The notes beneath the pieces were generated by a model. That model was not told the origin of the DNA and searched no databases. It saw only the letters and a list, made by a program, of their open reading frames with translations. This document shows positions 11,675-37,101 of a stretch of 42,119 nt of DNA, piece after piece. Position numbers and translations under genes: made by a program. Within the stretch, counting starts at the first letter, position 1. The number at the start of each line of letters is the position of its first letter. Source of the DNA: an uncultured Bacilli bacterium (GTDB lineage Bacteria > Bacillota_I > Bacilli_A > RF39 > UBA660); the NCBI GenBank assembly GCA_947628985.1, contig CANRCA010000002.1:1-42119 (forward strand), written 5' to 3'.

Positions 11675-11698
11675 ATTAAAGATAGAAAGGAGTATAGA

Positions 11699-13885: not shown

Positions 13886-13900
13886 TAAAAGGAGAATGAT

Positions 13901-20068: not shown

Positions 20069-22339
20069 TTATTTACAATCAAGTTCAGGATAACCTGAAG
20101 TACCTAATTTCCAATCACATAATGTATATCCAGTTAATCTACTATCTAAGTCAGTTAAATTAATACTATTCTTATTTGTGTTTAATGTACTAACAAAAGT
20201 AGCATTCTTCATTTCACTTGATGGTTTTCCTATTACATTTGTTGTATCTGTTGGTTTTGTACCTGTTAATGTATTTAAATAATATACATTTTTATAAGTA
20301 GTTGGTATATTTGAATTATTGTTTGTTATAACATTATTTGTTTTTATACTATTTAATCCACCTATATTATATACATTATTTAATGTTATACTTTTTAAAT
20401 TAATATATAATATACCATTTGCGGTTAATCCACCTGTTGTATTTCCATTCAATGTTATACTTCCTTGATTATAACTATTTAATATTACTGTATTTGTGCT
20501 TGTATCTTCTTGATTAGCTGGATTAGAAGCAATTTGACTTCCTACTATACCACTTCCACTAGCAGGATAATTATTATCTATATTTACTGCAATATTGCCT
20601 TTATTATAACTATTTAATATCACTATATCCTCATGGTTTATACCCCAACCAGATGTAGCACCAAATAAGCCTCCTATATCAATATAAGAATCCCATGTAT
20701 CACTTGAACTCAAATTTGCTAAATTATAACAATTATTCATTATAAATCCTGATTGACAATCTCCTACTAATCCTCCTGTTCTATTTCCTCCACTTATTAT
20801 TCCTTCTTTTTCATTTGATGAATTTGTTATTATACTTGTTTGAGTACTAAAAAAATTTCCTACTAAGCCACCTATACATCTACCAACATTAATACTATTA
20901 TTACTCGTTATTGTATTTTTATTATGACTATTATTTATAGTTGCTTTACCTTCAACTCGACCTATTAATCCTCCTGCATAAAATGCACTATTACTATCAA
21001 TTGCTATTTTTCCTGCATTATTAGAGTTTTGAACATTTAATGTTCCGTATATTCTTCCTACTATTCCACCCATATAGGTAGTAGTACTTTCTTTTGTGCT
21101 GTTTATTTGTCCGTAATTGTTTGAGTCTTTTATATTTGTTTCATTTGTTTCTGCATTATCTCTTCCAAGAATACCACCTATATTCTGACCTAAATCATTT
21201 GTAATATTACCATTATTAGTACTTCTTTCAATAGTTAATTTAGAATTACTATAACCAACTATTCCTCCTGTATTATTACTTCCACTCACTAATGAATTAT
21301 TTGTACTATCAGTTATGCTAGATGTACCATGTGAACCCCCAACAATACCACCAATACTATAGGAACCAACTTTACTTGTAATATTAACATAATTATGACA
21401 ATTTTTTATTGTTGAATTATTTATATCTCCTGCAATACCACCTATATTAGCACTTTCAGTTGTTTCTATATTTCCACTTAATGTTAAATTACTTATTGTA
21501 CTATTTTCTATGTATCCAAATAATCCTATTGAAATTTTTGTTGCATCACTATTTTTTATATATAAATTATCTATTCTATTGTTATTTCCATCAAAATTTC
21601 CTTTAAAGTAATTACTACCTCCTCCTATTGGTTCAAATCCACTTCCTGTTGTTACTATATCTTTATTTGTTTCTGCATCTTTATAATTTTCTTCAATATT
21701 AAAATCTAAACTATTCATTAATTTAAATACTTTATTTTCAAATGTTTCCCCACCATTTACTCTTTCACTTAATTCTATTAAATCTTCTATGTATTGTATT
21801 TTAAATGGATCTTCTTCTGTTCCACTTCCTATAAAATATTCATCTACTGTAGGTTCATCTGGTTTATCTTCTATTTCTTCTCCCTCTTCTATTGATGTTC
21901 CATCACATGCTGTTAAACCTACTCCTTCTTGTCTTGTTTCACTTTTTATTTTCTTATTACTTTTACTATTTCCTATATCATCTCTTTTTATATCTGTCCC
22001 ATTTGTTTTGATTAGTTGATAATTATTATCCATTACTTCTATACTTATTATCTTTCCACTATTAGATAATTCTACTTTATATTTTAAACTTGATTTTGCA
22101 TCTAAATTTAATGAATTAGTTTTTGAATCATAACATAAATTACTTACATTATTCATTGAGTCTTCTATATATTTTTGTTGTGCTGTTCTTATTATATTTT
22201 GTACTTCTTCTACAAACGAATTTTCTCTTGCATTCCTATATAAATTTAATATATTTGGTAGTGCTATTAATACTAGTATTGCTAAGATTGCAATAACTGC
22301 TAATAATTCTACCAATGTAAATCCTTTTTTATTTTTCAT
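20069..22339 (-). CDS. Modular type IV pilin: prepilin N-terminus, pilin-like domain, acidic linker and a GLUG-motif repeat module
   Basis: MKNKKGFTLVELLAVIAILAILVLIALPNI is a class III signal (G/FTLVE). After about 155 aa comes an E/D/P linker. Then come more than 10 degenerate repeats containing GG[IL][IV]G spaced by N/S/T-rich turns (NIGGIAGD, SIGGIVGG, NTGGIVGY, NIGGILGR, YMGGIVGR, YAGGLIGR, CIGGLVGN, RTGGLVGD, DIGGLFGA), which is the GLUG motif pattern. Confidence 0.85.
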   Translation of the reverse strand: MKNKKGFTLVELLAVIAILAILVLIALPNILNLYRNARENSFVEEVQNIIRTAQQKYIEDSMNNVSNLCYDSKTNSLNLDAKSSLKYKVELSNSGKIISIEVMDNNYQLIKTNGTDIKRDDIGNSKSNKKIKSETRQEGVGLTACDGTSIEEGEEIEDKPDEPTVDEYFIGSGTEEDPFKIQYIEDLIELSERVNGGETFENKVFKLMNSLDFNIEENYKDAETNKDIVTTGSGFEPIGGGSNYFKGNFDGNNNRIDNLYIKNSDATKISIGLFGYIENSTISNLTLSGNIETTESANIGGIAGDINNSTIKNCHNYVNITSKVGSYSIGGIVGGSHGTSSITDSTNNSLVSGSNNTGGIVGYSNSKLTIERSTNNGNITNDLGQNIGGILGRDNAETNETNIKDSNNYGQINSTKESTTTYMGGIVGRIYGTLNVQNSNNAGKIAIDSNSAFYAGGLIGRVEGKATINNSHNKNTITSNNSINVGRCIGGLVGNFFSTQTSIITNSSNEKEGIISGGNRTGGLVGDCQSGFIMNNCYNLANLSSSDTWDSYIDIGGLFGATSGWGINHEDIVILNSYNKGNIAVNIDNNYPASGSGIVGSQIASNPANQEDTSTNTVILNSYNQGSITLNGNTTGGLTANGILYINLKSITLNNVYNIGGLNSIKTNNVITNNNSNIPTTYKNVYYLNTLTGTKPTDTTNVIGKPSSEMKNATFVSTLNTNKNSINLTDLDSRLTGYTLCDWKLGTSGYPELDCK
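21878..21994. repeat. Near-identical 117-nt block shared with 61..177
   Basis: Same comparison as for 61..177. The block encodes DIKRDDIGNSKSNKKIKSETRQEGVGLTACDGTSIEEGEE at the junction of pilin domain and linker. Confidence 0.85.
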
Positions 22340-22518: not shown

Positions 22519-22881
22519 TTATTCAAATGTATCTAAATTAGAACTACAATTGAATGGATGATTTATACAAGGCATACAATCTTTATAACTATTATTACCT
22601 ATTAAATTCATAATTAATGAAACAATTACTGTTACAAAGAAAACTAATGCTGCAGCAATTGCTCTTTTAACTAATTTCTTTTGAGCTTCTTGTATTTTAT
22701 TATCATCTTTTTCACCAACTGCTTTTGCAAAATCTAACATTCCTACAAATATTAATATTATTGGTACTACAATCATAATTCCTAATCTAACAATACCAAC
22801 TATTCTAAGAATTGGTTCTAATCCATTACATAGATCAGCCATATTATTAATTTGTTCTAATAGATTAACTAAATTTAACAT
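22519..22881 (-). CDS. Small two-TM membrane protein with a Cys-rich C-terminal tail (unknown function)
   Basis: 120 aa with two hydrophobic helices (IVGIVRLGIMIVVPIILIFVGML and AIAAALVFFVTVIVSLIMNLI). These flank a charged loop (EKDDNKIQEAQKKLVKR). The tail reads YKDCMPCINHPFNCSS. It is the last gene before the operon terminator. Confidence 0.5.
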   Translation of the reverse strand: MLNLVNLLEQINNMADLCNGLEPILRIVGIVRLGIMIVVPIILIFVGMLDFAKAVGEKDDNKIQEAQKKLVKRAIAAALVFFVTVIVSLIMNLIGNNSYKDCMPCINHPFNCSSNLDTFE

Positions 22882-22957: not shown

Positions 22958-23944
22958 TTATAAATTAACTTTTTTAATAAAATTAATTATTGGATCTATT
23001 TTACCATCTCTATCATTTAAAGCTGGTATTGAATATAATACTTTTAATTTAGTCTCATATCCAAATGTTGCTATATCTTCATTATTTAACATACATTTAT
23101 TTAAAATTATTTTTTTATCTTTTAATTTTTCTAAAATTCCTGCATCTCTTTTTAACATTTTATTTATCATAAGTGTAGATGGTTCAATCAAATAATATAC
23201 TTCTTCACATATTTCAGTGTCTTCATAATCATTTAAATCAATAAATAATATATCATATGATTGTTTTTTCATAATTTCTTTTAATAAATCAGGAGTTGTA
23301 GTACTAATCATTTCAGGATCTTTAAAATATAAGAAATCTACTTTATTTACTTCTAATGCACCTACTAATCTATTATTTTGTAATGTTTTCTTTAACATAT
23401 AAATTAATGATGTAGCTCCAGCATGATTAGTTACATTTTTAAATCCTATTATTCTTAATTTTCCACTACCTTGATTATTAGTACTATTATTAATTACTTT
23501 TTCTACAATAACAGAATCAGATGTTTTATCGTTATCTGCAATTGCCATTTGAGTATCTATTTCTTGTAAATTATGCATATTTACTACATCTTTATATTGA
23601 TGAGGATGTACAAGTAAATAATTTATTCCACTAGTATTTTTAGTAAAATTATAAATACCTAATGATATTAATTTAGATATATAATCTTTTGTATCTGTTA
23701 CTGGATTATTATCAAGTAATAATATAACGTTTTCCATATTTAAATTCATAGAAAGTTTTTGTAAATTTTCTATATTTTCATAATCTCTAATAGCAGTTAT
23801 ATCTAAAATCATTTTATCAAAATAAAAATTAGTAAAAGTATCAATTATTTCATCAACATTATAAACACCTTCTAAAGTTTTCATAACTTCAATGTTTAAT
23901 CCCTTTAAAAGATCTTTATATTTATTATAAATCATTACATTCAT
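22958..23944 (-). CDS. TadZ/CpaE-like protein: receiver-like N-domain plus ParA/MinD-like domain with a degenerate P-loop
   Basis: The N-terminal roughly 120 aa have a receiver-like alternation (MNVMIYN...DKMILDITAI...VILLLDNNP). The C-terminal half starts LRIIGFKNVTNHAGATSLIYMLKK where MinD/CpaE proteins have KGGxGKT(T/S). Position inside a tad-like operon supports the call, which is made from architecture and context only. Confidence 0.35.
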   Translation of the reverse strand: MNVMIYNKYKDLLKGLNIEVMKTLEGVYNVDEIIDTFTNFYFDKMILDITAIRDYENIENLQKLSMNLNMENVILLLDNNPVTDTKDYISKLISLGIYNFTKNTSGINYLLVHPHQYKDVVNMHNLQEIDTQMAIADNDKTSDSVIVEKVINNSTNNQGSGKLRIIGFKNVTNHAGATSLIYMLKKTLQNNRLVGALEVNKVDFLYFKDPEMISTTTPDLLKEIMKKQSYDILFIDLNDYEDTEICEEVYYLIEPSTLMINKMLKRDAGILEKLKDKKIILNKCMLNNEDIATFGYETKLKVLYSIPALNDRDGKIDPIINFIKKVNL

Positions 23945-23967: not shown

Positions 23968-24459
23968 TTATTTACTACAATCAAATGCTCCTATATCATA
24001 GTATAAAGTTCTTGTTTCTCCAGTAACTGGTATTTTAAATATAAAATTAAAAATTGGAAATTGAACTGCAACATATGTAGTTACTTTATAATATGTATTT
24101 TCTTTTTTATTATTATTTGTACATACTTTTGTTAAACAATATCCACCTGTCATTGCACTTTGTCCATTCTCACATACTATATTTTCAGTAGTAGAATAAT
24201 TATATCCTGCATTCTTTATTTTTAAAAAAGTTAAAGCTTCTACTGAATTATCTTGTTGTAATTGTTCATCGCTAGCATTTTTTAAATCTAATATTTTACT
24301 TGTTGTAAATCCTTCATGTTGTTCAATTAAATCTATTATTTGATTTTTAATATTAAAAGCTCTAGTATAACTAATTGAATATGTTAAAAATGATGCAAAA
24401 AGCACAATAAAAACTATAACAATTCCAAACAACCAAGTTCCACCCATTGCTTCTCTCAT
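23968..24459 (-). CDS. Pseudopilin/TadE-like candidate (N-terminal MREAMGG plus a hydrophobic helix)
   Basis: 163 aa beginning MREAMGGTWLFGIVIVFIVLFASFLTY, followed by a soluble domain with 4 Cys. It lies immediately downstream of the candidate pilin gene, with an aaggag RBS. Confidence 0.45.
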   Translation of the reverse strand: MREAMGGTWLFGIVIVFIVLFASFLTYSISYTRAFNIKNQIIDLIEQHEGFTTSKILDLKNASDEQLQQDNSVEALTFLKIKNAGYNYSTTENIVCENGQSAMTGGYCLTKVCTNNNKKENTYYKVTTYVAVQFPIFNFIFKIPVTGETRTLYYDIGAFDCSK

Positions 24460-24488
24460 ATTAAAAACTCCTTTTTAAATCAAACTTT

Positions 24489-24525
24489 AAAAAAACTATA
24501 AACTATAATCATATAATTTATAGTC
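24489..24525 (-). terminator. Weak A/T hairpin plus T-run after the candidate pilin gene (possible attenuator)
   Basis: The - strand reads actataaa-(14 nt)-tttatagt followed by tttttt, beginning 19 nt after the stop at 24544. The stem is AT-only, so stability is doubtful. Confidence 0.3.
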
Positions 24526-24543
24526 AATTTATTATATTTTTTA

Positions 24544-24813
24544 TTATTCTGCAGGTTTACAAGTTTGAGCATTATATGTTGTAGTACCTTGTGGACAACA
24601 AGCCCATTTACTAACAGTTGCATTGCTTCCTTGATTAACATCTTCTGCTCCTGTTTTTACTGCTACCCATCCTGTTCCATATACATCACATGTTTGTTGA
24701 ACAACTGCTCTTTGAATCATTGGCCAAATTGCAAAATAGAATAATGCACCAACTGCTGCAACAGCAACTAATGCAACTACTGTCATATTTAATTCACCTG
24801 TTGCTTCTTTCAT
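24544..24813 (-). CDS. Candidate major pilin of the Tad-like system (small, hydrophobic N-terminus, 4 Cys)
   Basis: 89 aa: MKEATGELNMTVVALVAVAAVGALFYFAIWPMI, then a 55-aa Gly/Thr-rich domain with C42, C72, C73 and C85. It has a strong RBS (aaaggagg) and its own promoter. Its position directly after tadC is as in flp-tad loci, but it does not match the canonical Flp G/XXXXEY motif. Confidence 0.5.
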   Translation of the reverse strand: MKEATGELNMTVVALVAVAAVGALFYFAIWPMIQRAVVQQTCDVYGTGWVAVKTGAEDVNQGSNATVSKWACCPQGTTTYNAQTCKPAE

Positions 24814-24845
24814 ATTTGATAATTCCTCCTTTATCTTCTAAATTA

Positions 24846-24874
24846 ATTATATAACATACATATTTTATAATCAA
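24846..24874 (-). promoter_or_regulatory. Near-consensus promoter directly upstream of the candidate pilin gene
   Basis: The - strand reads TTGATT (24874..24869), a 17-nt spacer, then TATAAT (24851..24846), in the 69-nt gap after tadC. Confidence 0.55.
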
Positions 24875-24882
24875 GTGATTTT

Positions 24883-25689
24883 TTACATACTGCCAAATAT
24901 TTGTAAAATAGATAGTAATAAAATAACAAGTACACCTGCTCCGGTTGCTACTAACATTGACATTGTTTTCTTTTCCATCTTTTCTAGTCTTTCTTTATAT
25001 TTTGTATCTCTTGATTTAGCTTGTAGATTTGATATTGTTCTTGAAAAAACTATTAATTGTTCTTGTTTTCTTTCTTGACTACCTAAACTAAGTCTATATA
25101 AAAGTCTCATCATACGCATAGAATCTCTAACTGGATATCTACGAGCAAATGCCATATATGGTTCAATTGTTGAATCTCCTGCATCAATAGCTGCTATTAA
25201 CTCACGAAGTCCTGGTTTAAACATTTCAGGAGCATCATCTAAACTTCTAGTAATGGCAACTGGTACTGTATAGTGTTGAATTAAAATTTCTAAACTTTTT
25301 AAATAATATGGTAACTTTAAATTAATATCATGTAAGTGAACTTTATAATAGTTCTTAAGTTTATTATAATCATCTTTAAAGATTAAATACGTAAGAGCTA
25401 AAACTAAAACTAATTTTATTGCAATATTTATATTTTCTATACTAGTAATTACTATAATCATACCTACAATAAATGTAATAATTGCACTTTTTACTCTTTT
25501 TTGATACTTTTCATTTGGAGTAATTCTATCTCCATATTTACTTATAACAAGAAAATCATAATCATCTTCTTTTAATTTTCCAAAAATTACTTTATTATCA
25601 TCAACAAACTTATTAAAACTAAATATTCCATTATAATTAAATAAGAATATTAAGATAACACCAACAATTAAAATTTCTAATCCATCCAT
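24883..25689 (-). CDS. tadC: Tad platform protein, TadC-like (single T2SS-F domain)
   Basis: 268 aa with TM segments flanking a helical cytoplasmic domain (LPYYLKSLEILIQHYTVPVAITRSLDDAPEMFKPGLRELIAAIDAGDSTIEPYMAFARRYP) and a C-terminal TM. TAATG coupling to the tadB-like gene. Confidence 0.7.
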   Translation of the reverse strand: MDGLEILIVGVILIFLFNYNGIFSFNKFVDDNKVIFGKLKEDDYDFLVISKYGDRITPNEKYQKRVKSAIITFIVGMIIVITSIENINIAIKLVLVLALTYLIFKDDYNKLKNYYKVHLHDINLKLPYYLKSLEILIQHYTVPVAITRSLDDAPEMFKPGLRELIAAIDAGDSTIEPYMAFARRYPVRDSMRMMRLLYRLSLGSQERKQEQLIVFSRTISNLQAKSRDTKYKERLEKMEKKTMSMLVATGAGVLVILLLSILQIFGSM

Positions 25690-26588
25690 TATTCAGCCCC
25701 CACATCCTCATGATAATATTTAATACCTGTTATTAAGAAATAAGTATTTATAAGTATTACAAAATGTAACAGCACTTGAACATACCAAGCATCTAATAAT
25801 TGTAAATAACTATCATTTCCTAATAACAATTGAACTAATAATACTAATAAATATAAAGCACATCCAAATGTAAGAAATTGTTTATAAAAATTAGTTCTAT
25901 CAATTCTATCACGATATACACTTTCTACTAACATATCTATATCTTGAAGCATTCCTTCTAAAGCTTCACCTGAATCTTTAGATCCTTCTTTAGTAATTTG
26001 AATAAATAATTGATGCATATTTTTAACTACATAATAGTCATATTTTTCATTCATAAATGTTATAGCTTCATCAATAGTACCATTATCATATGACATTTGA
26101 ATCATTTCTTTTATATCACTAAGTAATGGATCTTCTAAAACTCCTGAATCTCTAACACCTTCTAAAGCTTTAACAAAAGATTGAGTTGTATTATATTCCA
26201 TAATAACGTTTGTAGTGTAAACTTGTATTTGTTCAAATATAAATTCACTATATGCTTTTTTACATCTCATATATGCTAAATATGGTATAAAAGCAATTGC
26301 TAACGCTGCATAAACTATACTCCAAATAATACTATAAAAATATAAATAAGATACAAAAGCAGCTACAATTCCAAATATAATAACTTGAATTAAATATTGT
26401 CTTGGAGTATATTCTTGACCTAATTCTTTTGCTTTTTCACGTACTACTTTAAATGAATATGGAGCATATTTTTCATAAGTATTTCCTATTGTTTTAACAA
26501 TAAATTTATAAGAGTTATTACCTGTATTTCTTCTATAAATATATACAAATATAAATATAGCTACTACAACAAATATCTCAATATACAT
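25689..26588 (-). CDS. tadB: Tad platform protein, TadB-like (single T2SS-F domain)
   Basis: 299 aa with an N-terminal TM, two central TMs, a helical domain (LEGVRDSGVLEDPLLSDIKEMIQMSYDNGTIDEAITFM) and C-terminal TMs. RBS taggaggtg. A split platform (two single-domain proteins) is the Tad/archaeal arrangement. Confidence 0.7.
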   Translation of the reverse strand: MYIEIFVVVAIFIFVYIYRRNTGNNSYKFIVKTIGNTYEKYAPYSFKVVREKAKELGQEYTPRQYLIQVIIFGIVAAFVSYLYFYSIIWSIVYAALAIAFIPYLAYMRCKKAYSEFIFEQIQVYTTNVIMEYNTTQSFVKALEGVRDSGVLEDPLLSDIKEMIQMSYDNGTIDEAITFMNEKYDYYVVKNMHQLFIQITKEGSKDSGEALEGMLQDIDMLVESVYRDRIDRTNFYKQFLTFGCALYLLVLLVQLLLGNDSYLQLLDAWYVQVLLHFVILINTYFLITGIKYYHEDVGAE

Positions 26589-26599
26589 TTTTACACCTC

Positions 26600-27865
26600 C
26601 TATACATCTAATAATTCAAATCCATTTTGACTTTCAGAATTATTATTTATATTTTGATTTACATTATTATCTACTTTAATTAAACTTGGATTATTTTCTT
26701 GACTTACAGTATTTTCTATAACTTGATTTGTTACTTGATTTTGTACTGGTACTTCTTCTTTATGTTCTTCATTATTCTCACTAGTTGATTCTTGTATAGT
26801 ACTATCTATTGGTATAAATGGATCTTCTCTCATCATAACACCTTGACTAGCTAAATAATCAATTAAATGACTAGTTGGGTTATTATAAGTTTCATTTCCT
26901 GTTAAATCACGTGAATATAAAATATTTACTTTTGCTTCATTTGCTTCATCATCAACATAAAATTCTACAACTTGAGTAATTTCTCTTTGAAATCTATTAT
27001 ATTGTTTAGAATAAAATCCTTTTACATGAATTCCAATTTGTATATATCTATGCATACTTTTAACAAATTGATCTATATCTTGACTAGACTCAAGTAGTGA
27101 ATAAAGACGCATAGGAATACTTGATGCTTTATCAGAGTGAATTGTTGATAAAATGTTATGTCCAGATGAAATAGAGTTTCTAACTGCTGTAACGGCTTCA
27201 GCAGAACGAACTTCTGATAGTAAAATCCATCTTGGGTTTTGACGCATACAAGCAACAAGTACATCTGAATATGATGCAATATTATTTGTTTTCATCGCAA
27301 CTATATCTCTTGTTGGATATATTTTATCTAAGTGAAGTTCTAAAGTATCTTCTATTGTTATAATTTTTTCATCCTCTTTTATTTTACTTGCTAAATATTT
27401 TACTAATTCAGTTTTACCACTACCAGTTTCTCCACTTACAAGTATATTGCAGTGCCCTTGAACACAAGTTATTAAAAAGTCATGTAATTTTACTGAAACA
27501 TAATCTTCACTTACTAATTTTTCTTTATTTAATCTTATTTTAGCTGGTGTTTTTCTTATTAAAACAGCTATTCCATTTGTAGCAATTGATTCATGCACAA
27601 AATTAAGACGTAATTCTGCACTTTCAGCATCTAATAATGGATGAGCCATATTAAATGTTTTACCCATTACATTAGAACATTGAAATGCAAGTTTTTCCAT
27701 AACATCATTATTTAATCCTTCAATGTGTTCTGGATATACGCCTTTTGATAAAGATTTTACCCATAATTGTCCACCATTAGAATATGAAATATCTGTAATA
27801 TCATCATTTTCTAATAATGGCATAAGTAAGCCAAAATCTATTTGTGAAAAAACAATTGTGTCCAT
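26600..27865 (-). CDS. tadA: TadA/CpaF-family secretion ATPase (VirB11-like clade) with an N/Q-rich C-terminal tail
   Basis: Walker A VSGETGSGKTE, Asp box ITIEDTLEL, Walker B/arginine region RQNPRWILLSEVRSAEA, His box HNILSTIHS. It lacks the tetracysteine motif of PilB-type ATPases. The last 70 aa or so are low-complexity N/Q/E. Confidence 0.85.
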   Translation of the reverse strand: MDTIVFSQIDFGLLMPLLENDDITDISYSNGGQLWVKSLSKGVYPEHIEGLNNDVMEKLAFQCSNVMGKTFNMAHPLLDAESAELRLNFVHESIATNGIAVLIRKTPAKIRLNKEKLVSEDYVSVKLHDFLITCVQGHCNILVSGETGSGKTELVKYLASKIKEDEKIITIEDTLELHLDKIYPTRDIVAMKTNNIASYSDVLVACMRQNPRWILLSEVRSAEAVTAVRNSISSGHNILSTIHSDKASSIPMRLYSLLESSQDIDQFVKSMHRYIQIGIHVKGFYSKQYNRFQREITQVVEFYVDDEANEAKVNILYSRDLTGNETYNNPTSHLIDYLASQGVMMREDPFIPIDSTIQESTSENNEEHKEEVPVQNQVTNQVIENTVSQENNPSLIKVDNNVNQNINNNSESQNGFELLDV

Positions 27866-27877
27866 TTTTATTCCTTT

Positions 27878-28636
27878 CTAATCAACCAAATCTGGTTCAA
27901 TTTGTTCAGTTTTACTTTCTATTAATCCTCTTAAATATTCACTTTTAATATTAGTTTCTTTATCGTAATTAGCATTTCTTGGAACTGGTATTAATTCACC
28001 ACCGCTTAAATTCATAGCTTTTCTAAGTAATAAATGATAATCTTCAGAAACTGAGAATATTAATGCTGTTGCATTTTTTTGATCTGCACTTTTCTTAAAT
28101 ATATGATTTCCTGATTCATCTTTAACTGCTAGTATTTCAATACCTTCAATTAATTTACCAAGTGCTAATTTTCCATCTTCATAAGTTTTATAATATAAAT
28201 CAATTTTATCTCCAGGATATATTGCATTTCCATATGTAGATGAGGCACTTACTGGTAATGAAACTATTGTATTATTATTAACTATATTAGACCATGCTGA
28301 ATCTGGCATAACACTCCAATCAACTACAGCTGATGAATAAAACATACTTCCTTCAGGAATAAAAGTATTATAATTCACATATTTTCCTAATAATGAATTT
28401 GGATTTGTTATAACATTATCAGTTATCATAGATGAAGCTACTTTAACTGTTTTATAACAATCTTCTGTAATTTCTGTTCTAGCATCAAGATTTTTAGTTG
28501 CTATTGGAATACTTATTGCATTTATTGCTCTATTAACTCTATAGTTATATCCAACTATTAATATTACTACACAAATTATACTAGCAAGTAATGTAACAAT
28601 ACTTTTATTATGAAAAAACTTACTTATTATTTTCAT
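27878..28636 (-). CDS. cpaB: CpaB/RcpC-like protein (SAF-like domain plus beta domain), copy 2
   Basis: N-terminal TM, then IPIATKNLDARTEITEDCYKTVKV and NTIVSLPVSASSTYGNAIYPGDKIDLYY, which match the CpaB pattern (SAF-like segment, then ...PGD.VD...). Paralogous to the adjacent 294-aa protein. Confidence 0.65.
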   Translation of the reverse strand: MKIISKFFHNKSIVTLLASIICVVILIVGYNYRVNRAINAISIPIATKNLDARTEITEDCYKTVKVASSMITDNVITNPNSLLGKYVNYNTFIPEGSMFYSSAVVDWSVMPDSAWSNIVNNNTIVSLPVSASSTYGNAIYPGDKIDLYYKTYEDGKLALGKLIEGIEILAVKDESGNHIFKKSADQKNATALIFSVSEDYHLLLRKAMNLSGGELIPVPRNANYDKETNIKSEYLRGLIESKTEQIEPDLVD

Positions 28637-29517
28637 TGTATACCTCCATCATTAACACCTGAATTATTATCTTGATTTTCAGTATCATTATTTTCTACAT
28701 TATTGTCATTGTTTCCTACAACAGGAACATTTCCTCCAATTGTTCTATCTTGACTTTCAACATCAATTGCATTATCTAAAATATATCTTTGAATAACAGA
28801 ACTTACTACTCTTGTTTCTTTAGGATTTTTAGAATATTCTGCATTTCTTGGAACCGGGAATATTGTACCATTTGCATAAGATGCTTTTCTTAAAAGTAAA
28901 TGCATATCTTCAGGAACACTAAATACTAAATATGTAGGTGATTTTGGAGCACCAATAGTTTCAAAAACATTATCACCTTCACTATCAGTTACAGAAAGAA
29001 CTTTAATACTTTCTATAAATTTACCTAACATTAATTTTCCATTTTCTAATGTAGTAGAAAAATATAAATCTATATAATTTCCAGGGAAAATAGAATTTCC
29101 ATAAGTACTATCTAAAGTTACAGGTAAAGCTACTAAAGTATTTCCATCTGGTATATTTTCATATAAACTTGATGGTAAATCTTCCCAAGATACTACCATA
29201 CTTGAATAAAATAATCCATTATTTGGTATAACTGCTGTATTACTAACATATTTTCCAATTATATCATTAGTATTTGTAAGAACATTTTTATTAACTACAC
29301 CACCTGGTACTTTTCTAGTTGATACCATTTCTGCAGTAATTAATGTTCTTGGTTCTAAATCTTGAGTTGCATATGGGACGTTAACTGGTTCTGTTTCCTT
29401 TTGTATTTTATAATTATATGCCCAATATAAAATACCCAATGCCAATAATATTGCTAAAATTGTAACAGTATTTTTATTTTTTAAAAATCTTTTAATTCCT
29501 ATTATAATAGTATTCAT
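28633..29517 (-). CDS. cpaB: CpaB/RcpC-like protein, copy 1, with an N/D-rich C-terminal tail
   Basis: N-terminal TM, VPYATQDLEPRTLITAEMVSTRKVP and NTLVALPVTLDSTYGNSIFPGNYIDLYF. It has a 4-nt overlap with copy 2. The tail reads GNNDNNVENNDTENQDNNSGVNDGG. Confidence 0.65.
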   Translation of the reverse strand: MNTIIIGIKRFLKNKNTVTILAILLALGILYWAYNYKIQKETEPVNVPYATQDLEPRTLITAEMVSTRKVPGGVVNKNVLTNTNDIIGKYVSNTAVIPNNGLFYSSMVVSWEDLPSSLYENIPDGNTLVALPVTLDSTYGNSIFPGNYIDLYFSTTLENGKLMLGKFIESIKVLSVTDSEGDNVFETIGAPKSPTYLVFSVPEDMHLLLRKASYANGTIFPVPRNAEYSKNPKETRVVSSVIQRYILDNAIDVESQDRTIGGNVPVVGNNDNNVENNDTENQDNNSGVNDGGIQ

Positions 29518-29622
29518 TCTTTTTCCCTCTCTTTATTACCTATTCTATACTAATCCATTATAGCATAAAAGTTCTCTCATATTCAAGATATAAAAAAATA
29601 TTTGATTAAAAACCAAATATTT

Positions 29623-30042
29623 TTAATTAGAACCATTTGCACTTCCTGTTTCTAATATTCCACTTATATATGTATTAATATTTACATCTAAACTATCTGA
29701 ATTAATTTCTGTTGAACCACTTTTTGTTCTAATTCTAACAGTTGCCTTTGGAGGATATTCATGTATATCATAGAAATCTAATTTATAACTTCTAGCATTA
29801 GATACACTTTCTGAAAATCTACGAATAAAAACTTCAACAAATTTTTCCTTAGACATAACAAGTTCTCCTGAACTCATATATGTTCCATAATCTATTGCAT
29901 CAACCATTGAGGCTTTCATAACTTCTCTACTTAAATAATAATCTTCTTCATTAGTTGTAGTCAACCTTTGTACTAACAATAAGACTGCAATTATAATTAA
30001 TCCTAAAGATAAAATTAAATATCCCCATACAGATTCTTTCAT
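29623..30042 (-). CDS. Small N-terminally anchored protein, pseudopilin-like candidate (MKESVWG plus a hydrophobic helix)
   Basis: 139 aa: MKESVWGYLILSLGLIIIAVLLLV, then a soluble domain. It is the first gene of the tad-like operon and shares the M-[KR]-E-[AS]-x-x-G start with 24544..24813 and 23968..24459. Confidence 0.4.
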   Translation of the reverse strand: MKESVWGYLILSLGLIIIAVLLLVQRLTTTNEEDYYLSREVMKASMVDAIDYGTYMSSGELVMSKEKFVEVFIRRFSESVSNARSYKLDFYDIHEYPPKATVRIRTKSGSTEINSDSLDVNINTYISGILETGSANGSN

Positions 30043-30077
30043 AAATTACCTTCTTTCAACTTATCTATCTTATTTAA

Positions 30078-30106
30078 ATTATAGCAAAATACTAATTAAA
30101 TTTAAA
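30078..30106 (-). promoter_or_regulatory. Putative extended -10 promoter for the tad-like operon
   Basis: The - strand reads TTTAAA (30106..30101), a 17-nt spacer ending in TGc, then TATAAT (30083..30078), in the 82-nt gap after the 1301-aa gene. Confidence 0.35.
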
Positions 30107-30124
30107 GTATTTTTTTATAAGTTT

Positions 30125-33100
30125 CTATTTATTACTTGTATATTCTGATATTCCATCACCTTTAATAACATTTACACCATAAGAACCATTTCTTAAATCA
30201 GTTAAAAATTTACTTGTACAATTTAAGAATTTATTATCTACAACATCACATGAATCTTTTTCTATTGTATCATTCATATAACTTCCACTATTTTTAACAC
30301 TTTGATTATAATCTTTTATTTTTCTAATACTAGATGGTGTTAATTCAAAACTATATTCTAAATACTTTTCTGTGCCTATTAAATCATTAGCAGTATTTTG
30401 TATTTGATTAGTTGCATTTACTCCATTAGATGTTGTCCAGTTAGTTTGTAAATCTTTCCTTGATTCTTTATCAGGGAATAAATTATTTAAATCAACATTT
30501 CTATAAATTGTATTTGTTTTTATTGATGATAAAGAATTAGATGCAGATGTACTATCTGGTAAAACAGTAACACTTGGTTCTTTTACATCAACACTACATG
30601 TAAACTTAGTAAAGTTTTGACTTTTTAATTCATTTGTAAATCCATCAGATGCTCTTTTTCTATAATATGTTGATACATCTGACAAAGTTTGAGTAACATC
30701 ACATCTACTTAATCCATTATCTAATTTTTTACATTCATTATATGCTTGTTTTGATAATGGATAAGAATATTTATCTAAATTAATTACATCTGTTTTACTA
30801 GTATTTTTAGATTTATCAATTATTTTACCACTATATGCTTCAACTTGGAATTCACTATTATTATAAAATCCTACTTGAGTACTTACTTCAAATAATGCAT
30901 AATCATTAGCAGGAACATCTATATTTGTAAATCTTTCTTTGTTATTTAAAATATTTGTACTATTAAATTCGTTATATGAATAATTTTCTTTAGTTGCATT
31001 ATATTCTAAACAAATTCCTTTACAATAAGATACATCTGATAATTTACTTGATGAAATTTTTTGCATATCTATGTCAGATGATCCACTTCCTATAGTATAA
31101 GGTTTATTCTGACTTGATACTTTATTTATAACTTCAGCTCCTCCATTATATGTAACTGAATTTTTCCATTCTGTATTTATTCCATAATTATTACTTTCTC
31201 CATATATTGATTTTATATAATTATTTATATTGCCAGTTGTATTCTCAACAGGTTTCCATACACTACTAGGTATATCAGATTCTTTAGCAAAATTACAATT
31301 ATATAAATCATATATTAATTGATTTAAATTTTCACGTCTTGATCCTTCACTTTGTGATTTAGCATACAATACAGCAAATAAATCTTTCCAATTTGTTATA
31401 GTTTTATCATCACCTGGTAATATACTTAAATCTCTATTTGTTATACCATATATTCTCTCCCAATCAATTGAATCTGGGAAAGGTTTATCAAAATATATTT
31501 CAGATACACACTTTCTCTTCATACTAATACCACTTGATAATTTCTTTGTTTCTGTATTAAATGCTTCGAAAGGTTTTATATCATATGTGAATTCTCTACC
31601 TGAAACTGCTTTTATATTATCTGCTAAACTATATTCAACTTCATCACTACAATATACTCTACAGAAATTTCTATTTACTTTAAAGTAATCACTATAATCA
31701 TAATAATTTTTATATTCAATAGAATCCATATTTACTATACAACTTAATGATGGATCTTTTATATATCCTGTATATACACTATTTTCTTTGTTTTGACATA
31801 CTGGTCTTGATGATCTAACACTATAATCACTACAGTTTCCTTGACAATTAAATGTTATATCATATGATACTTCATCAAATCCACTTTCTGTTGTTGTAGT
31901 TCCACTATTATTTATTTCTTCTTTCTTATAAAATGCAAACATAGTTTGTGCATTATCTGGGTTAGGACAAGCTACGTATTTTCTAACACTATATCCTGAA
32001 GTAGATTTTTTATATTCTATTTCTATTTTATATTTTTTATATGTAGTACTACTGTTTTTATCACAAACAGCAAAATATTCTGATTCTATTATTAATTCAC
32101 CTTTACTAGCATCATATATTTTATCAGAATCATTTATATCTATTTCATATTTTTGTCCATTTATATCAACTGCATATAAATGTTTTACTTCAACAGTACA
32201 ATATTGAGATATATAATTTCTATTATCACTATTTAATTCTGGATAATTAAGCCCAGTTGTTTTACCTTGTTCAATTAATGCAGCATCTTCTTGTATTTTT
32301 TTACAACTATATTGTACTCTTTCTGTATTAGTTATTTTTCTATCAAATGTTAATACTACTTTAGATTCTTCCTCTCCTCCAATTGGTTTTTCTGTCTCTA
32401 CTCTAGCAGAATTTGGTCTTGTATCAACTTCATTACCAAATAAAGAATCTAAATGTTCTTTCATATATTTATTTCCAAATACAGTATTAAAGAATAATGC
32501 AGCTGCTTGTTTCATTGTAGTTCTATTACCACACATACCATCTGGAAATTCACTACAAGATAAAGAGTCAAATTTATCAAAAAAATAATTATCAGGTTTT
32601 GTAGGATCTATATAATCAAATTTTTGTTTTGCTATATTATCCATATATATTCGCCATAATCTTGAATATCCTGATGCATATACATTACCAGAAGCTACAA
32701 ATGCAACTTGTTTTGAACAATTATTACCCATTGCCTGTGATACACCAGGCTTTGAATTGTCATACCCTGCTCCACCTGAGTGTGCACCCCATAGCCTCAT
32801 AGCAAGATCTATTACTTTATCACTAAAGTGATAATAGTTTCCTTCAATCATTATATTTGCATAACCACAATCAATAGTACTATAACTACTACTACAATTA
32901 TTTACATCAAAATCTGCAACTTGATAATTATTAGTTGTATTACTGTCAAAATTTTGATTAGGATTTATACAATAAGCTGGTGAATTATTTACTTGAAATG
33001 ATGGTGTACACGCTTCAAAAGTCTTTGTTTCTGGTATACATTGATATACAGGACAAGTTAAATGATATCGTGGCATACCACAAGATGTACACTCAATACT

Positions 33101-34012
33101 ATCAGCGCCTATTTCATCTTTATATTTTTTACATATATCAAGCATTTTACTTTGATTTGCTGATTCACCTTCAAATCCATAATCACCACCAGTAATCCAA
33201 CTATCGTCTGCTTCTGTAGTAAAAACTTTACTTTTTTCATTATATACACATATACCTGTCGCTCTATTATAAGTATAACCCGCATCACATGATATACATC
33301 CAAATGATACGTGTCCATTAGTAGATAATGGACCTGCTTGAGTACCAGAAGGACATTGAATACATTGACTACCGGTAGGAACTTCAGTATATCCAGAAGG
33401 ACATGCAATTCTTTTACAAGTAGTGTTTTGTGTAGTACATTTTTGATAAGTACATAATTTACCTCTATAAACTCCACCAACTTCAGCACACATATTTGCA
33501 TCATGCATGATCTCTCTAATAACTTCACAATTTGGTTTAGTATTCCATGCTACACAACTCATACTAGCATATTTAACATTTTGGCTTGTTAATTTAGGTG
33601 TTTTTGTAGCAGTAAAATAACAAGTGGTTGTTGCTGTTACTTTTCTTCCCTCATCATTACATCTTTGATAATATTGAACAGATGATACTGTTCCTTTTCC
33701 TGATAATGTTGACTTATTACTAACTCTTACAAGCCAATCACTAAAAGACATTTTAGCATCAAGATAGTTATAACCATCATAAACATTATTAAAAATTTCA
33801 TTCCCATTTTCATCTATTGCTCTTTTAAAATTTTCACAAACAGATGCTTTCATATCAAAACCTGCATTACTAGACTGTGTTGTATAACCTATATGTACAT
33901 TACATTTATTTGTCGTTCCAGCATTTATAAAAGAACACATAAAAGAGAACACCAATATTGTTGATATTTTTATTAAATTATTTTTCTTATTTTTTAATAC
34001 ATTAGTCTTCAT
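30125..34012 (-). CDS. Giant secreted cysteine-rich protein, copy B (about 1295 aa), unknown family
   Basis: Sec-type signal (MKTNVLKNKKNNLIKISTILVFSFMCSFINAG). About four dozen Cys by manual count. No C-terminal TM or LPXTG. Collinear paralog of 37691..41296, with a 21-aa identical run (TYDIKPFEAFNTETKKLSSGI) and other near-identical blocks (CRVYCSDEV-[ED]-Y, ENLN-[QE]-LIYDLYNCNF, RNVDLNNLFP, KGDGIS-[ED]-Y). The start is ambiguous (34030 or 34012) and neither has a good RBS. Confidence 0.75.
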   Translation of the reverse strand: MKTNVLKNKKNNLIKISTILVFSFMCSFINAGTTNKCNVHIGYTTQSSNAGFDMKASVCENFKRAIDENGNEIFNNVYDGYNYLDAKMSFSDWLVRVSNKSTLSGKGTVSSVQYYQRCNDEGRKVTATTTCYFTATKTPKLTSQNVKYASMSCVAWNTKPNCEVIREIMHDANMCAEVGGVYRGKLCTYQKCTTQNTTCKRIACPSGYTEVPTGSQCIQCPSGTQAGPLSTNGHVSFGCISCDAGYTYNRATGICVYNEKSKVFTTEADDSWITGGDYGFEGESANQSKMLDICKKYKDEIGADSIECTSCGMPRYHLTCPVYQCIPETKTFEACTPSFQVNNSPAYCINPNQNFDSNTTNNYQVADFDVNNCSSSYSTIDCGYANIMIEGNYYHFSDKVIDLAMRLWGAHSGGAGYDNSKPGVSQAMGNNCSKQVAFVASGNVYASGYSRLWRIYMDNIAKQKFDYIDPTKPDNYFFDKFDSLSCSEFPDGMCGNRTTMKQAAALFFNTVFGNKYMKEHLDSLFGNEVDTRPNSARVETEKPIGGEEESKVVLTFDRKITNTERVQYSCKKIQEDAALIEQGKTTGLNYPELNSDNRNYISQYCTVEVKHLYAVDINGQKYEIDINDSDKIYDASKGELIIESEYFAVCDKNSSTTYKKYKIEIEYKKSTSGYSVRKYVACPNPDNAQTMFAFYKKEEINNSGTTTTESGFDEVSYDITFNCQGNCSDYSVRSSRPVCQNKENSVYTGYIKDPSLSCIVNMDSIEYKNYYDYSDYFKVNRNFCRVYCSDEVEYSLADNIKAVSGREFTYDIKPFEAFNTETKKLSSGISMKRKCVSEIYFDKPFPDSIDWERIYGITNRDLSILPGDDKTITNWKDLFAVLYAKSQSEGSRRENLNQLIYDLYNCNFAKESDIPSSVWKPVENTTGNINNYIKSIYGESNNYGINTEWKNSVTYNGGAEVINKVSSQNKPYTIGSGSSDIDMQKISSSKLSDVSYCKGICLEYNATKENYSYNEFNSTNILNNKERFTNIDVPANDYALFEVSTQVGFYNNSEFQVEAYSGKIIDKSKNTSKTDVINLDKYSYPLSKQAYNECKKLDNGLSRCDVTQTLSDVSTYYRKRASDGFTNELKSQNFTKFTCSVDVKEPSVTVLPDSTSASNSLSSIKTNTIYRNVDLNNLFPDKESRKDLQTNWTTSNGVNATNQIQNTANDLIGTEKYLEYSFELTPSSIRKIKDYNQSVKNSGSYMNDTIEKDSCDVVDNKFLNCTSKFLTDLRNGSYGVNVIKGDGISEYTSNK

Positions 34013-34094
34013 AATATAAGTGTAACACATTTTTATTTATTTTTAAACAAAAAAATATAATGTTAAATCAAACATCATATTCTTCATTTAATAA

Positions 34095-34757
34095 TTAAAA
34101 TTTTTCTTTTTCTTTTTTAATTTTTCTAGATTTTATAATATAAACTATTGTTATTAAAACAAAAGGTGTAAACATATAAATTCCATAATTTATAATTGTT
34201 TTTAATATTCTATTAAAAGACCATTCTTGACTTTGTATTTGATTATCATATTCTTTTAATTCTTCTTTAAATTCTTCTTCTGTTATATTTTGTGTTTTAT
34301 CAGTATAAGTTTGACATAAATCATGTTCTGGGTATTTTTCACAGTATTCTGTTTTAGTAAAATAATTATAAGGTTCTACTGTATATTTTAATGTTTTTAA
34401 TAATTCATTTGGACAAGCACTATTATCATTTCCATATACTTCAAGTGTATAAGTTTCTTCTTTTAAATCTGTAAAACAACCTACCCCATAAATATTAAGA
34501 CTATCATAATTTTTGGCTTCTGCTTTATTTCCTTTACCATCTATTACTATTAATTTAATATCATCTCTAGGTGAAGAAATTGATAAAAAATAGGCATATA
34601 ATTCTTCGCCTTCTGTTATATCGCTTGATGTTCTTGAATCTTTTGTAAATTCTACTTGTACATTAGTAGCCCATTCACTTAAACTTTCATCATTACATAT
34701 TGCTTTTATATTAAACATAAATAACGATAAAAATAATATTAATATTAATTTTTTCAT
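34095..34757 (-). CDS. Small secreted Cys-containing protein with a C-terminal TM anchor (family member 2)
   Basis: Signal peptide, AICNDESLSEWATNVQVEF, GCFTDL, ACPNELLKTLKYTVEPYN, YCEKYPEHDLCQTYTD, an acidic linker, a C-terminal TM and a KSRKIKKEKEKF tail. Well over half of residues look identical to 41296..41961 by eye. Confidence 0.7.
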   Translation of the reverse strand: MKKLILILFLSLFMFNIKAICNDESLSEWATNVQVEFTKDSRTSSDITEGEELYAYFLSISSPRDDIKLIVIDGKGNKAEAKNYDSLNIYGVGCFTDLKEETYTLEVYGNDNSACPNELLKTLKYTVEPYNYFTKTEYCEKYPEHDLCQTYTDKTQNITEEEFKEELKEYDNQIQSQEWSFNRILKTIINYGIYMFTPFVLITIVYIIKSRKIKKEKEKF

Positions 34758-34775
34758 ATTCTCACCACCATATTC

Positions 34776-35417
34776 TTAAATACCATGTTGTAATTTAATT
34801 AGTTTATTTCTATAAAAAGGTATAAATATTAAACAAGTTATTAAAACTAATGCAATTTTAATACCATAATTAATTCCAAAATCATATAATTTATCAACTA
34901 ATGTTTTTTCTTTTTGTTGATTTTCTTGTTCATTTTCTTTATCTTGCACTATTATATTATCATAATTTTCTTTAGCTGTATTTAATAATTCTAAAGTAAC
35001 TTTACTTGATGTAAATTGAGATGAACACATTTTTATTTTATCTTCATATCCAGCACATTCAACACTATTATAATATGGATTAAAGTATTGTAAATTTATA
35101 AACATTGTTCTAAGTCTTATATCACATCCATCATTACCATATATATAAATAGCCATATATGTTCCTTCTTTTACATCATCAATTACAATTTCGCCATTTG
35201 AATTTCTATTATATTCTTTATCTTCAAACATAGCATATAATCCATCTACTACATTATATAAAGTAATTGTATATGTATTTTTCCCTTCATTAAATGAATA
35301 ATCACTTTGTATATTATTTGAATATTCTGAATATTCTTCATTTTTATCACGATTGCATTCTTCTGCATTAATAATAAATGGTAAAACTAATAATATAGAC
35401 ACTAATATTTTTTTCAT
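34776..35417 (-). CDS. Small secreted Cys-containing protein with a C-terminal TM anchor (divergent family member 3)
   Basis: Same layout as the other members: signal peptide, AEECNRDKNEEYSEYSNNIQSDYSF, GCDIRLRTMFINLQYFNPYYNSVECAGYEDKIKMCSSQF, an acidic/Q-rich linker and a C-terminal TM. ATGA overlap with the sortase gene. Confidence 0.65.
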   Translation of the reverse strand: MKKILVSILLVLPFIINAEECNRDKNEEYSEYSNNIQSDYSFNEGKNTYTITLYNVVDGLYAMFEDKEYNRNSNGEIVIDDVKEGTYMAIYIYGNDGCDIRLRTMFINLQYFNPYYNSVECAGYEDKIKMCSSQFTSSKVTLELLNTAKENYDNIIVQDKENEQENQQKEKTLVDKLYDFGINYGIKIALVLITCLIFIPFYRNKLIKLQHGI

Positions 35418-37045: not shown

Positions 37046-37101
37046 ATTAATCTCCTATTATATATATAATAACATAAAAATCTTTTTAATAAAAGATAAT
37101 G

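Follow-up and report, generated by a model that had tools for sequence, protein, structure and literature searches.

Type IV filaments are detected through the pilin signal and an A24 peptidase. In the class III signal peptide (SPIII), a stretch of 20-25 mainly hydrophobic residues comes after a hydrophilic or neutral leader whose last residue is invariably Gly or Ala; Glu at position 5 of the mature protein is frequent but optional, and leader removal is required in every type IV filament studied (PMC10191384). Here we describe a minus-strand gene cluster in a 42,119-nucleotide stretch of DNA (hereafter, the window) from an uncultured Bacilli bacterium (assembly GCA_947628985.1, contig CANRCA010000002.1, positions 1 to 42,119). 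The cluster encodes three small proteins that begin with M-[KR]-E-[AS] (hereafter, the tag), namely a candidate major pilin of 89 amino acids (aa), a 163-aa protein and a 139-aa member of the DUF5411 family. We put at roughly 0.5 the probability that all three are filament subunits of a divergent Tad/Epd-related type IV machine, with the tag as their leader and with the 89-aa and 163-aa proteins cleaved after Gly by a shared A24 peptidase. Many uncultured Bacilli of the gut and rumen have kept the apparatus, and because its subunits escape the Flp, TadE and GFxxxE models, it is missed by current annotation.

Tad systems are thought to derive from Epd-like pili (PMC6668835), and classical Gram-positive tad operons carry their own tadV, among them one from Erysipelotrichales in which tadV is the first gene (PMC12786226). 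Gene-context embedding predicted, for Roseburia, Ruminococcus and Eubacterium, an uncharacterised operon related to secretion in which DUF5411 accompanies CpaF and PilC/GspF (Miller et al., 2022; PMC9523054); among the papers found, this is the only one to mention DUF5411. The TANB77 pilus cluster of uncultured gut Clostridia encodes CpaB, a TadA-like ATPase, TadB/C-like proteins and several pilin-like proteins with one transmembrane helix, with no prepilin peptidase described, and its pilin ties surface filaments of uncultured gut Firmicutes to host immune effects (PMC11680825). The strings MKEATGE, MKESMWGY and MREAIGG occur in no paper found.

Three small proteins share an N-terminal tag

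The three proteins and the codons of their tags lie at the following positions.

29623..30042, minus strand: DUF5411 protein, 139 aa, starting MKESVWG-YLIL (open reading frame with ribosome-binding site; PF17424)
24544..24813, minus strand: candidate major pilin, 89 aa, starting MKEATG-ELNMT (open reading frame with ribosome-binding site; homologues)
23968..24459, minus strand: minor-pilin-like protein, 163 aa, starting MREAMGG-TWLF (open reading frame with ribosome-binding site; homologues; AlphaFold2 model)
30022..30042, minus strand: tag codons 1-7 of the DUF5411 protein (MKESVWG)
24793..24813, minus strand: tag codons 1-7 of the 89-aa protein (MKEATGE)
24439..24459, minus strand: tag codons 1-7 of the 163-aa protein (MREAMGG)

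The initial annotation had placed the three open reading frames (ORFs) at these positions, and we recovered each of them on the minus strand with lengths of 139, 89 and 163 aa. Each opens at the earliest start codon that its reading frame allows once the preceding stop has passed, and a ribosome-binding site of the GGAGG/GAAGG type stands 6-9 nt before it, which excludes longer leaders in the window. Their N-termini read MKESVWG-YLILSLGLIIIAVLLLV (DUF5411), MKEATG-ELNMTVVALVAVAAVGALFYF (89 aa) and MREAMGG-TWLFGIVIVFIVLFASFL (163 aa), with the longer stretches being MKESVWGYLILS, MKEATGELNMTVV and MREAMGGTWLFG, respectively. The common denominator is M-[KR]-E-[AS], one or two further residues, Gly at position 6 and/or 7 and about 20 hydrophobic residues. 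The motif first proposed for all three, M-[KR]-E-[AS]-x-x-G, describes the DUF5411 and 163-aa proteins but not the 89-aa protein, which starts MKEATGE and has Gly6 followed by Glu7.

The N-termini fit the class III grammar recognised at the outset, in that three otherwise unrelated proteins have a short hydrophilic N-terminus that ends in a small residue and is followed by about 20 hydrophobic residues. Set beside the published description, a hydrophobic stretch of 20-25 residues directly follows the leader, both in the sequences and in the modelled helices (residues 2-48 of DUF5411 and 5-47 of the 163-aa protein). The rule that leaders end in Gly or Ala fits the 89-aa and 163-aa proteins and, in part, DUF5411 (Gly7 in the window and in 110 of 149 representatives). 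A Glu5 of the mature protein is absent, as the Gly is followed by ELNMT, (G)TWLF and YLILS, and an acidic residue stands beside the Gly only in the 89-aa protein (E7, at +1). The leader belongs to neither the GFxxxE nor the Flp type, as had been noted: Pfam and NCBIfam gave no match to N_methyl, Flp_Fap, Flp1_like, TadE or the archaeal class III families, and PF07963 (N_methyl) and TIGR02532 matched none of the three proteins.

When the three families were compared by hhalign, only the first 11-22 residues aligned, at low probability. Homology among the families was rejected because the alignment is confined to this stretch; as far as sequence comparison goes, they share a signal and not a fold. 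A shared N-terminus without further homology is what pilins of one system have. The three genes stand together with genes for a CpaF-like ATPase and CpaB-like proteins.

Specificity and conservation of the tag

Three of the 33 ORFs in the window start with M[KR]E[AS], where about 6e-4 per protein would be expected from the other 30. Across 84 related loci the tag is present in 150 of 180 members of the three families (69/89 for DUF5411, 44/46 for the pilin, 37/45 for the 163-aa protein) and in one of about 660 proteins from 17 other families. The motif is kept in orthologues. We considered whether the likeness might be a chance resemblance or a by-product of A-rich, initiation-favouring codons in a genome with 23 % G+C. 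The composition of the window, also 23 % G+C, offers some room for this, with K or R at position 2 in 58 % of its ORFs. However, codons 2-8 show much synonymous change while the residues stay fixed (Ala4 is encoded by GCT, GCA, GCG or GCC and Gly6 by GGA, GGT, GGC or GGG), which places selection on the protein and not on the start region of the mRNA. Together with the contrast between 150/180 and 1/~660, this synonymous variation rules the explanation out, and we assign it a negligible probability.

The candidate filament subunits

Homologues of the 89-aa protein fall into 379 clusters. Across 120 of the 379, the N-terminal 11 residues (MKEA[TS]GELNMT) are invariant, and with a second clade added MKEA[TS]GE(LN/VS)MTV remains essentially invariant; Gly6 is invariant in both clades. 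The protein consists of the tag, a transmembrane helix, a WP pair and four Cys (C42, C72, C73, C85); in the same 120 homologues the helix, the WP pair and the Cys are invariant too, as is the N-terminal half as a whole, and the C-terminal half is variable. The family lacks the G/XXXXEY Flp motif, and a Pfam search of 40 members at E<=5 returned no Flp_Fap, Flp1_like, N_methyl, archaeal class III signal or other family. Because of the invariant N-terminal half, the variable C-terminal half and the four Cys, the 89-aa protein has the appearance of a major pilin whose tail is variable and Cys-bonded, and it would be the subunit that is polymerised.

The gene for the 163-aa protein is always found immediately after that for the pilin. 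More divergent genomes encode two pilin and two 163-aa paralogues, all of them tagged, and the two genes are duplicated in the same genomes. All 88 homologues of the 163-aa protein begin M[RK][ED][AS]xG[GS], with a W also conserved shortly afterwards (M[RK][ED][AS]xG[GS].W.). Gly occupies position 6 in 33 of 36 sequences and position 7 in 30 of 36, and every sequence has one or both. The family has no Pfam, NCBIfam or PDB match, and TadE was not matched by 42 members at E<=1.

The 139-aa protein matches PF17424 (DUF5411) with E=1e-49 and 168.4 bits (cut-off 30), residues 1-132 aligning to positions 1-132 of the 134-position profile. Its close homologues form 199 clusters, and a profile search of 1.8 billion representatives returned 618. 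Among the 150 of these 618 that were listed, the domain begins at residue 1 in nearly all and none has a longer leader. Within 149 representatives, position 4 is Ser in 114, Ala in 21 and Thr in 12, and conservation is stronger at Trp6 and Tyr8 than at Gly7; position 5 is F, Y, L, M, I or V. Profile and sequence searches of the PDB found nothing for the family, and the window protein did not match TadE at E<=0.1. The divergent representatives that were looked up lie on contigs of 0.9-3.8 kb each.

The DUF5411 gene always follows a gene for a giant Cys-rich protein. Homologues frequently carry C-terminal extensions, with which the whole protein reaches up to about 700 aa (many of P0329-P0477), and Dockerin_1 forms the C-terminus of two (P0260, P0309). 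As a dockerin is fused at that end in some members, the C-terminus is probably extracellular. This modular architecture suggests that DUF5411 is an adaptor-type minor subunit, which gives the family a testable role: a modular minor pilin carrying giant Cys-rich surface proteins or dockerin modules. In our scheme it would probably link the giant proteins encoded just upstream, or its own C-terminal modules, to the filament.

Elsewhere in the window, positions 11645-15370 (plus strand) encode two surface proteins with SH3_3, cadherin-like and Dockerin_1 domains beside a LytR-CpsA-Psr gene, an arrangement that is syntenic in relatives. Together with the dockerin-tagged DUF5411 proteins, these sequences hint at cohesin-dockerin surface assemblies.

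AlphaFold2 models built on the family alignments give both larger proteins a long N-terminal helix and a small β-sheet head. The 163-aa model (predicted local distance difference test score, pLDDT, 91) has a helix at residues 5-47, three short helices and three β-strands; the DUF5411 model (pLDDT 79) has a helix at residues 2-48, two short helices and three β-strands. In topology, the models have the general shape of a type IV pilin or pseudopilin, in whose lollipop fold a long N-terminal helix carries a globular head based on an antiparallel β-sheet. The 163-aa and DUF5411 proteins would accordingly be minor pilin-like subunits. Both lack the acidic residue that the pilin keeps beside its Gly, which makes them probable initiating or tip subunits; tip pseudopilins such as GspK likewise lack Glu5.

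A proposed divergent type IV machine

The cluster is long and lies on the minus strand, with a gene order conserved in about 160 fetched loci. The order begins with DUF6568, a 543-aa sortase fusion, anchored proteins of about 213 and 220 aa, a giant Cys-rich protein and DUF5411, and continues with one or two CpaB-like proteins, the ATPase, the 299-aa, 268-aa, 89-aa, 163-aa, 328-aa and 120-aa proteins and LtaS. The second part contains the presumed machine.

28633..29517, minus strand: CpaB/RcpC-like protein 1 (TIGR03177 E=8e-13, RcpC E=2e-5, SAF weak; below cut-offs)
27878..28636, minus strand: CpaB/RcpC-like protein 2 (TIGR03177 E=1.6e-5, RcpC E=8.5e-5; below cut-offs)
26600..27865, minus strand: secretion ATPase of the TadA/CpaF-FlaI-VirB11 clade (T2SSE E=5e-29)
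25689..26588, minus strand: 299-aa polytopic membrane protein, presumed TadB-like platform, adjoining the ATPase gene
24883..25689, minus strand: 268-aa polytopic membrane protein, presumed TadC-like platform, paralogous to the 299-aa protein
22958..23944, minus strand: conserved 328-aa protein in the TadZ/CpaE position (by synteny)
22519..22881, minus strand: 120-aa protein with two transmembrane helices (PF18895 E=0.0035, NF045849 E=0.0027, both below cut-off; syntenic)
20069..22339, minus strand: 756-aa GLUG-repeat protein with a canonical prepilin start, MKNKKG/FTLVELL (N_methyl E=9e-9; TIGR02532 above cut-off)

The closest solved relative of the ATPase is CpaF (1e-19), then come archaeal FlaI (1.6e-18) and GspE2, and then VirB11 at 4e-14. 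Its scores for the TIGR03819 and VirB11 models fall under the equivalog cut-offs, which marks it as a divergent member of the clade. The second CpaB/RcpC-like protein is missing from some clades. The 299-aa and 268-aa proteins are weak paralogues (hhalign E=8.6e-5, probability 60 %), and neither family matches anything in the PDB. We propose that the tagged subunits insert with the N-terminus inside and the C-terminus outside. Their extraction from the membrane and their polymerisation would be the work of the CpaF-like ATPase together with the pair of platform-like membrane proteins. The shared N-terminus would then act as a non-canonical class III-type signal, consisting of a near-neutral leader of 6-7 residues followed by the alpha1N helix.

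The 120-aa protein weakly resembles pilin-like families of Gram-positive type IV secretion systems (T4SS), including Mbov_0395 of mycoplasma integrative and conjugative elements, and divergent loci encode two or three paralogues, some of them much longer. A conjugative T4SS, as might be read from this weak T4SS_pilin match and from the VirB11-like score, was rejected: the cluster is chromosomal, lies in synteny across species beside LtaS and teichoic-acid genes, and encodes a CpaF-like ATPase together with CpaB.

Which peptidase, and is there cleavage?

The initial annotation noted that the window encodes no A24 peptidase, which our analysis bears out, and wider searches around the cluster were equally negative. 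No A24 family appears among the precomputed Pfam matches of neighbouring genes; ten recurrent neighbour families without an assignment gave HD, metallophosphatase, QueG, GH3 and a CPBP/Rce1-like protease in Pfam, and no A24; and a crude regular expression for the A24 signature GxGD[V]K had no hit in 1.35 + 1.08 Mb (~2.4 Mb in all, about 10 kb around the cluster at ~160 loci). It had been suggested that a dedicated peptidase processes the tag. Such an enzyme is not indicated, given that canonical MNKKG/FTLVE pilin genes occur in the same cluster here and in several relatives. The one in the window encodes the 756-aa protein (N-terminus MKNKKG/FTLVELLAVIAIL), which is ComGC/D/E-like with a long GLUG-repeat region and is an insertion between the 120-aa gene and LtaS, at a site that is empty in most relatives. 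In L038-40, L064 and L071 the cluster contains similar genes at other places, and L048 has one beside cluster genes.

Because of these canonical pilin genes, a general PilD/ComC-type peptidase is expected in these genomes, and since such an enzyme could be shared, the data do not require a dedicated one. Peptidase sharing between systems has precedent in MSH loci, which lack a peptidase of their own (PMC6668835). We thus favour a scheme in which an A24 peptidase encoded elsewhere in the genome, most simply the enzyme that serves the canonical GFTLVE pilins of the same cluster, probably cuts the pilin and the 163-aa protein after their conserved Gly. Cleavage of DUF5411 at the corresponding position would not be needed.

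Two other readings were considered and set aside. A sortase was rejected as the tag-processing enzyme, since its catalytic domain is extracellular and the tag would be cytoplasmic, and since the T-G of MKEATG is absent from the other two proteins. A Sec type I signal peptide was also rejected, because its basic N-region is lacking here, hydrophobic residues extend over about 20 positions and no AxA site follows them.

In seven divergent loci, a gene for a CPBP/Rce1-like protease (PF02517, E=7e-14) lies upstream of the cluster on the opposite strand. This placement may be local synteny only.

L063, 5061-5804, minus strand: CPBP/Rce1-like gene, adjoining the first cluster gene found
L071, 4599-5315, minus strand: the same
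L080, 3774-4448, minus strand: the same
L081, 3675-4343, minus strand: the same
L084, 5019-5756, minus strand: CPBP/Rce1-like gene, 0.6-1.2 kb from the cluster
L069, 3340-4011, minus strand: CPBP/Rce1-like gene, 0.6-1.2 kb from the cluster
L067, 4538-5266, minus strand: CPBP/Rce1-like gene, about 4.7 kb from the cluster

Evidence for and against a cleaved leader

Several observations weigh against the favoured scheme. The net charge of the tag is about zero (K, E), whereas normal prepilin leaders are positively charged, and the cluster lacks the tadV gene that classical Gram-positive tad operons carry. Sixteen platform sequences have no T2SSF match at E<=5, and the 328-aa protein has no Pfam or PDB match and nothing that ties it to TadZ/CpaE. 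Foldseek comparison of the 163-aa and DUF5411 models with the PDB found no significant match and no pilin for either (best E values 0.14 and 0.085 for the pair, none below 0.08), so the claim of a pilin fold is one of topology.

The largest difficulty concerns the Gly of DUF5411. The expectation that the Gly would be invariant in homologues is borne out for the pilin and nearly so for the 163-aa family, but it fails for DUF5411, where position 7 is G110, A16, S8, I5, T4 and L3 among the 149 representatives; about a quarter of them thus have Thr, Ala, Ser, Ile, Phe or Leu in place of Gly7. Whole DUF5411 clades carry Thr, Ala, Phe or Ile there, while the pilin and 163-aa protein of the same operon keep Gly. 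At four loci (L055, L061, L062, L078) the sole DUF5411 in the fetched stretch starts MKESFWTY, again with Gly kept in the other two proteins. In a sister clade represented by 80 metagenome loci, DUF5411 starts MKWS[FT]x[ST][VL]G, with the pilin (MKE[AT][TS]GEVSMTV) and the 163-aa protein (MR[ED][AS]xGG) both unchanged. A covariation test across clades likewise found that the DUF5411 N-terminus does not change with the other two. A single Gly-ended leader common to all three proteins therefore does not hold up at the level of sequence. Cleavage after Gly is plausible for the pilin and the 163-aa protein, and cleavage of DUF5411 at Gly7 is doubtful.

One alternative is that the same machine assembles the proteins as pilin-like subunits but that they are never cleaved. 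M-[KR]-E-[AS] would then be kept as a charge-balanced end, in which the amine and Lys2 offset Glu3/Glu7, and would serve for cytoplasmic recognition by the platform or the ATPase, making the filament peptidase-independent. Much of what is described above is compatible with this: the ~2.4 Mb around ~160 clusters without an A24 signature, the DUF5411 domains that begin at residue 1 with no longer version listed, a Gly7 that is dispensable in DUF5411, modelled helices that start at residue 2 (DUF5411) or 5 (163 aa) and run unbroken through the Gly, and a net-neutral tag whose residues ahead of the Gly vary no more than the ones that follow. However, leader removal is needed in every type IV filament studied (PMC10191384), the pilin never varies at its Gly and every 163-aa sequence has one at position 6 or 7, as expected for a -1 residue, and the canonical pilin genes of the cluster imply a general prepilin peptidase. 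We regard uncleaved subunits as unlikely.

Stated more broadly, the proteins might be filament subunits without A24 processing, either retaining an intact charge-balanced M-K-E-[AS] N-terminus or being trimmed at a non-Gly site by a non-A24 enzyme, a possibility we take seriously but still consider doubtful. Candidates for such an enzyme are the CPBP-type intramembrane protease beside the cluster in one clade and an unrecognised activity of the membrane proteins of the cluster. If true, a filament of this kind would break the rule, taken as universal, that an aspartic A24 peptidase removes the leader behind a Gly or Ala.

Cleavage could also fall after residue 4, with M-[KR]-E-[AS] as an archaeal-style leader (charged at -2, small at -1) and the mature protein starting at a hydrophobic residue or Thr at position 5. 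Such a site would account for the three families having nothing but positions 1-4 in common and for the variation at Gly7 of DUF5411; position 4 is small (Ala, Ser, rarely Thr) throughout, position 5 of DUF5411 resembles the +1 residue of type IV pilins, and Tad systems derive from archaeal Epd-like pili (PMC6668835). Ser or Thr at -1, however, is not accepted, as leaders end in Gly or Ala (PMC10191384). In addition, Glu3 is replaced by Trp in the MKWS clade, and the invariant Gly6 of the pilin would be left unexplained. We know of no four-residue leader in bacteria, and we consider cleavage at this site very improbable.

A further alternative is that only the 89-aa protein enters the filament, with the 163-aa protein, DUF5411 or both being type II membrane proteins (assembly or alignment factors, or anchors for the giant proteins) whose starts reflect a common constraint on insertion or expression and not a processing signal. 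The lack of a pilin-like Foldseek match for either model, the independent drift of the DUF5411 N-terminus and the constant pairing of DUF5411 with a giant protein, often with large C-terminal modules, are in keeping with such anchors. Against them stand the N-terminal helix of some 45 residues with a small β-sheet head in each protein, the strict confinement of the tag to these families, and the position of the 163-aa gene directly after the pilin gene with joint duplication in the same genomes. We judge this alternative to be quite unlikely and retain the view that all three tagged proteins are filament subunits. The net-neutral tag, and the tolerance of residues other than Gly in one subunit, would make the system a natural test of how strict the leader-cleavage rule is.

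Other genes of the cluster and its hosts

The upstream part of the cluster encodes surface-associated proteins.

30125..34030, minus strand: 1301-aa Cys-rich secreted protein with a Sec-type N-terminus, paired with DUF5411
34095..37617, minus strand: cluster head, with DUF6568, the sortase fusion and two C-terminally anchored proteins of about 215 aa
37102-37617, minus strand: DUF6568, 171 aa, N-terminal transmembrane helix, always the first cluster gene
35414-37045, minus strand: 543-aa protein with an N-terminal domain of about 350 aa, a transmembrane helix and a C-terminal class B sortase (TIGR03064, 163 bits, above cut-off)
37691..41961, minus strand: second cassette, with a 221-aa tail-anchored protein and a 1201-aa Cys-rich protein

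DUF6568 is mentioned in no paper found. No NPxTN- or LPxTG-like sortase substrate was found among the cluster proteins. The anchored proteins belong to no known family: those of about 213 aa (34776-35417, minus strand) have a transmembrane helix followed by an invariant C-terminus, ..[YF]RK[LIV]KHGI, and those of about 220 aa (34095-34757 and 41296-41961, minus strand) are tail-anchored with Lys-rich ends.

The giant Cys-rich secreted proteins measure 1000-1500 aa across loci, and neither Pfam nor NCBIfam matches the two in the window (1201 and 1301 aa). The window contains two copies of the cassette of a tail-anchored ~220-aa protein, a giant Cys-rich protein and DUF5411 (37691-41961 and 29623-34757), the copy at 37691-41961 being without DUF5411. 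It is duplicated in L004, L016, L021, L033 and L050, and the pair of giant protein and DUF5411 is repeated in L034 and L075.

The cluster is flanked by LtaS, teichoic-acid genes, LytR-CpsA-Psr and ribosomal protein S16, which indicates a chromosomal location and a walled host. The hosts are uncultured low-GC gut and rumen metagenome-assembled genomes (MAGs) labelled Bacilli, Tenericutes/Mycoplasmatota, Erysipelotrichaceae, Clostridium sp. CAG:1000/524 and Mycoplasma sp. CAG:472.

Comparison with known systems

Among described filaments, Tad/Flp (type IVc) pili are close in overall plan. Both combine a small major pilin, here a candidate, with two larger pilin-like proteins that have a common N-terminal signal (Flp and TadE/TadF, processed via TadV, in Tad), both have CpaB-like proteins, an ATPase nearest CpaF and a paralogous membrane pair in the place of TadB/TadC, and the cluster has no secretin, as in monoderm Tad systems. 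The present families differ in lacking G/XXXXEY and any Flp_Fap, Flp1_like or TadE match, in a net-neutral leader of 6-7 residues with no tadV in the cluster, in platform proteins that are not recognisable as T2SSF and in a pilin with a Cys-bonded C-terminal part.

The operon of Miller et al. (PMC9523054) resembles the cluster in that the neighbours of DUF5411 include a CpaF-like ATPase, a membrane protein of platform type and a large protein similar to adhesins or invasins, with its other genes unannotated. That paper names no pilins, tag or peptidase question, and its hosts are Clostridia, whereas ours form a low-GC Bacilli-type MAG lineage. The TANB77 cluster is likewise divergent and Tad-like, with small proteins that have a short cytoplasmic N-terminus, in uncultured gut Firmicutes. 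It has a set of its own, comprising a fused TadC-TadB of 693 aa, an ATPase of 640 aa and seven pilin-like proteins of 143-621 aa, with no DUF5411 or tag reported (PMC11680825). The link of the TANB77 pilin to effects on host immunity would give practical interest to the subunits of another system of this kind.

Type IVa/Com pilins (GFxxxE, cleaved and methylated by PilD/ComC) share a 6-residue leader (MKEATG compared with MKNKKG of the 756-aa protein), Gly at -1 and the hydrophobic helix, and the minor subunits described here model as a helix with a β-sheet head. The differences are a leader that is not basic, the lack of Glu5 and of an N_methyl/TIGR02532 match, and an ATPase that belongs to the CpaF/FlaI clade and not to the PilB/ComGA clade. 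Archaeal pilins (Epd and related, processed by EppA/PibD/FlaK) also have short leaders and do not need Glu5, and the ATPase of the cluster is nearly as near to FlaI as to CpaF. The present leaders lack [KR]-G at -2/-1 and match no archaeal class III family, and the QxSxE motif of archaeal pilins is absent from these proteins. Seen against all of these, the system would be a variant of the type IV filament, with subunit families and a signal outside all curated models, and not a categorically new machine.

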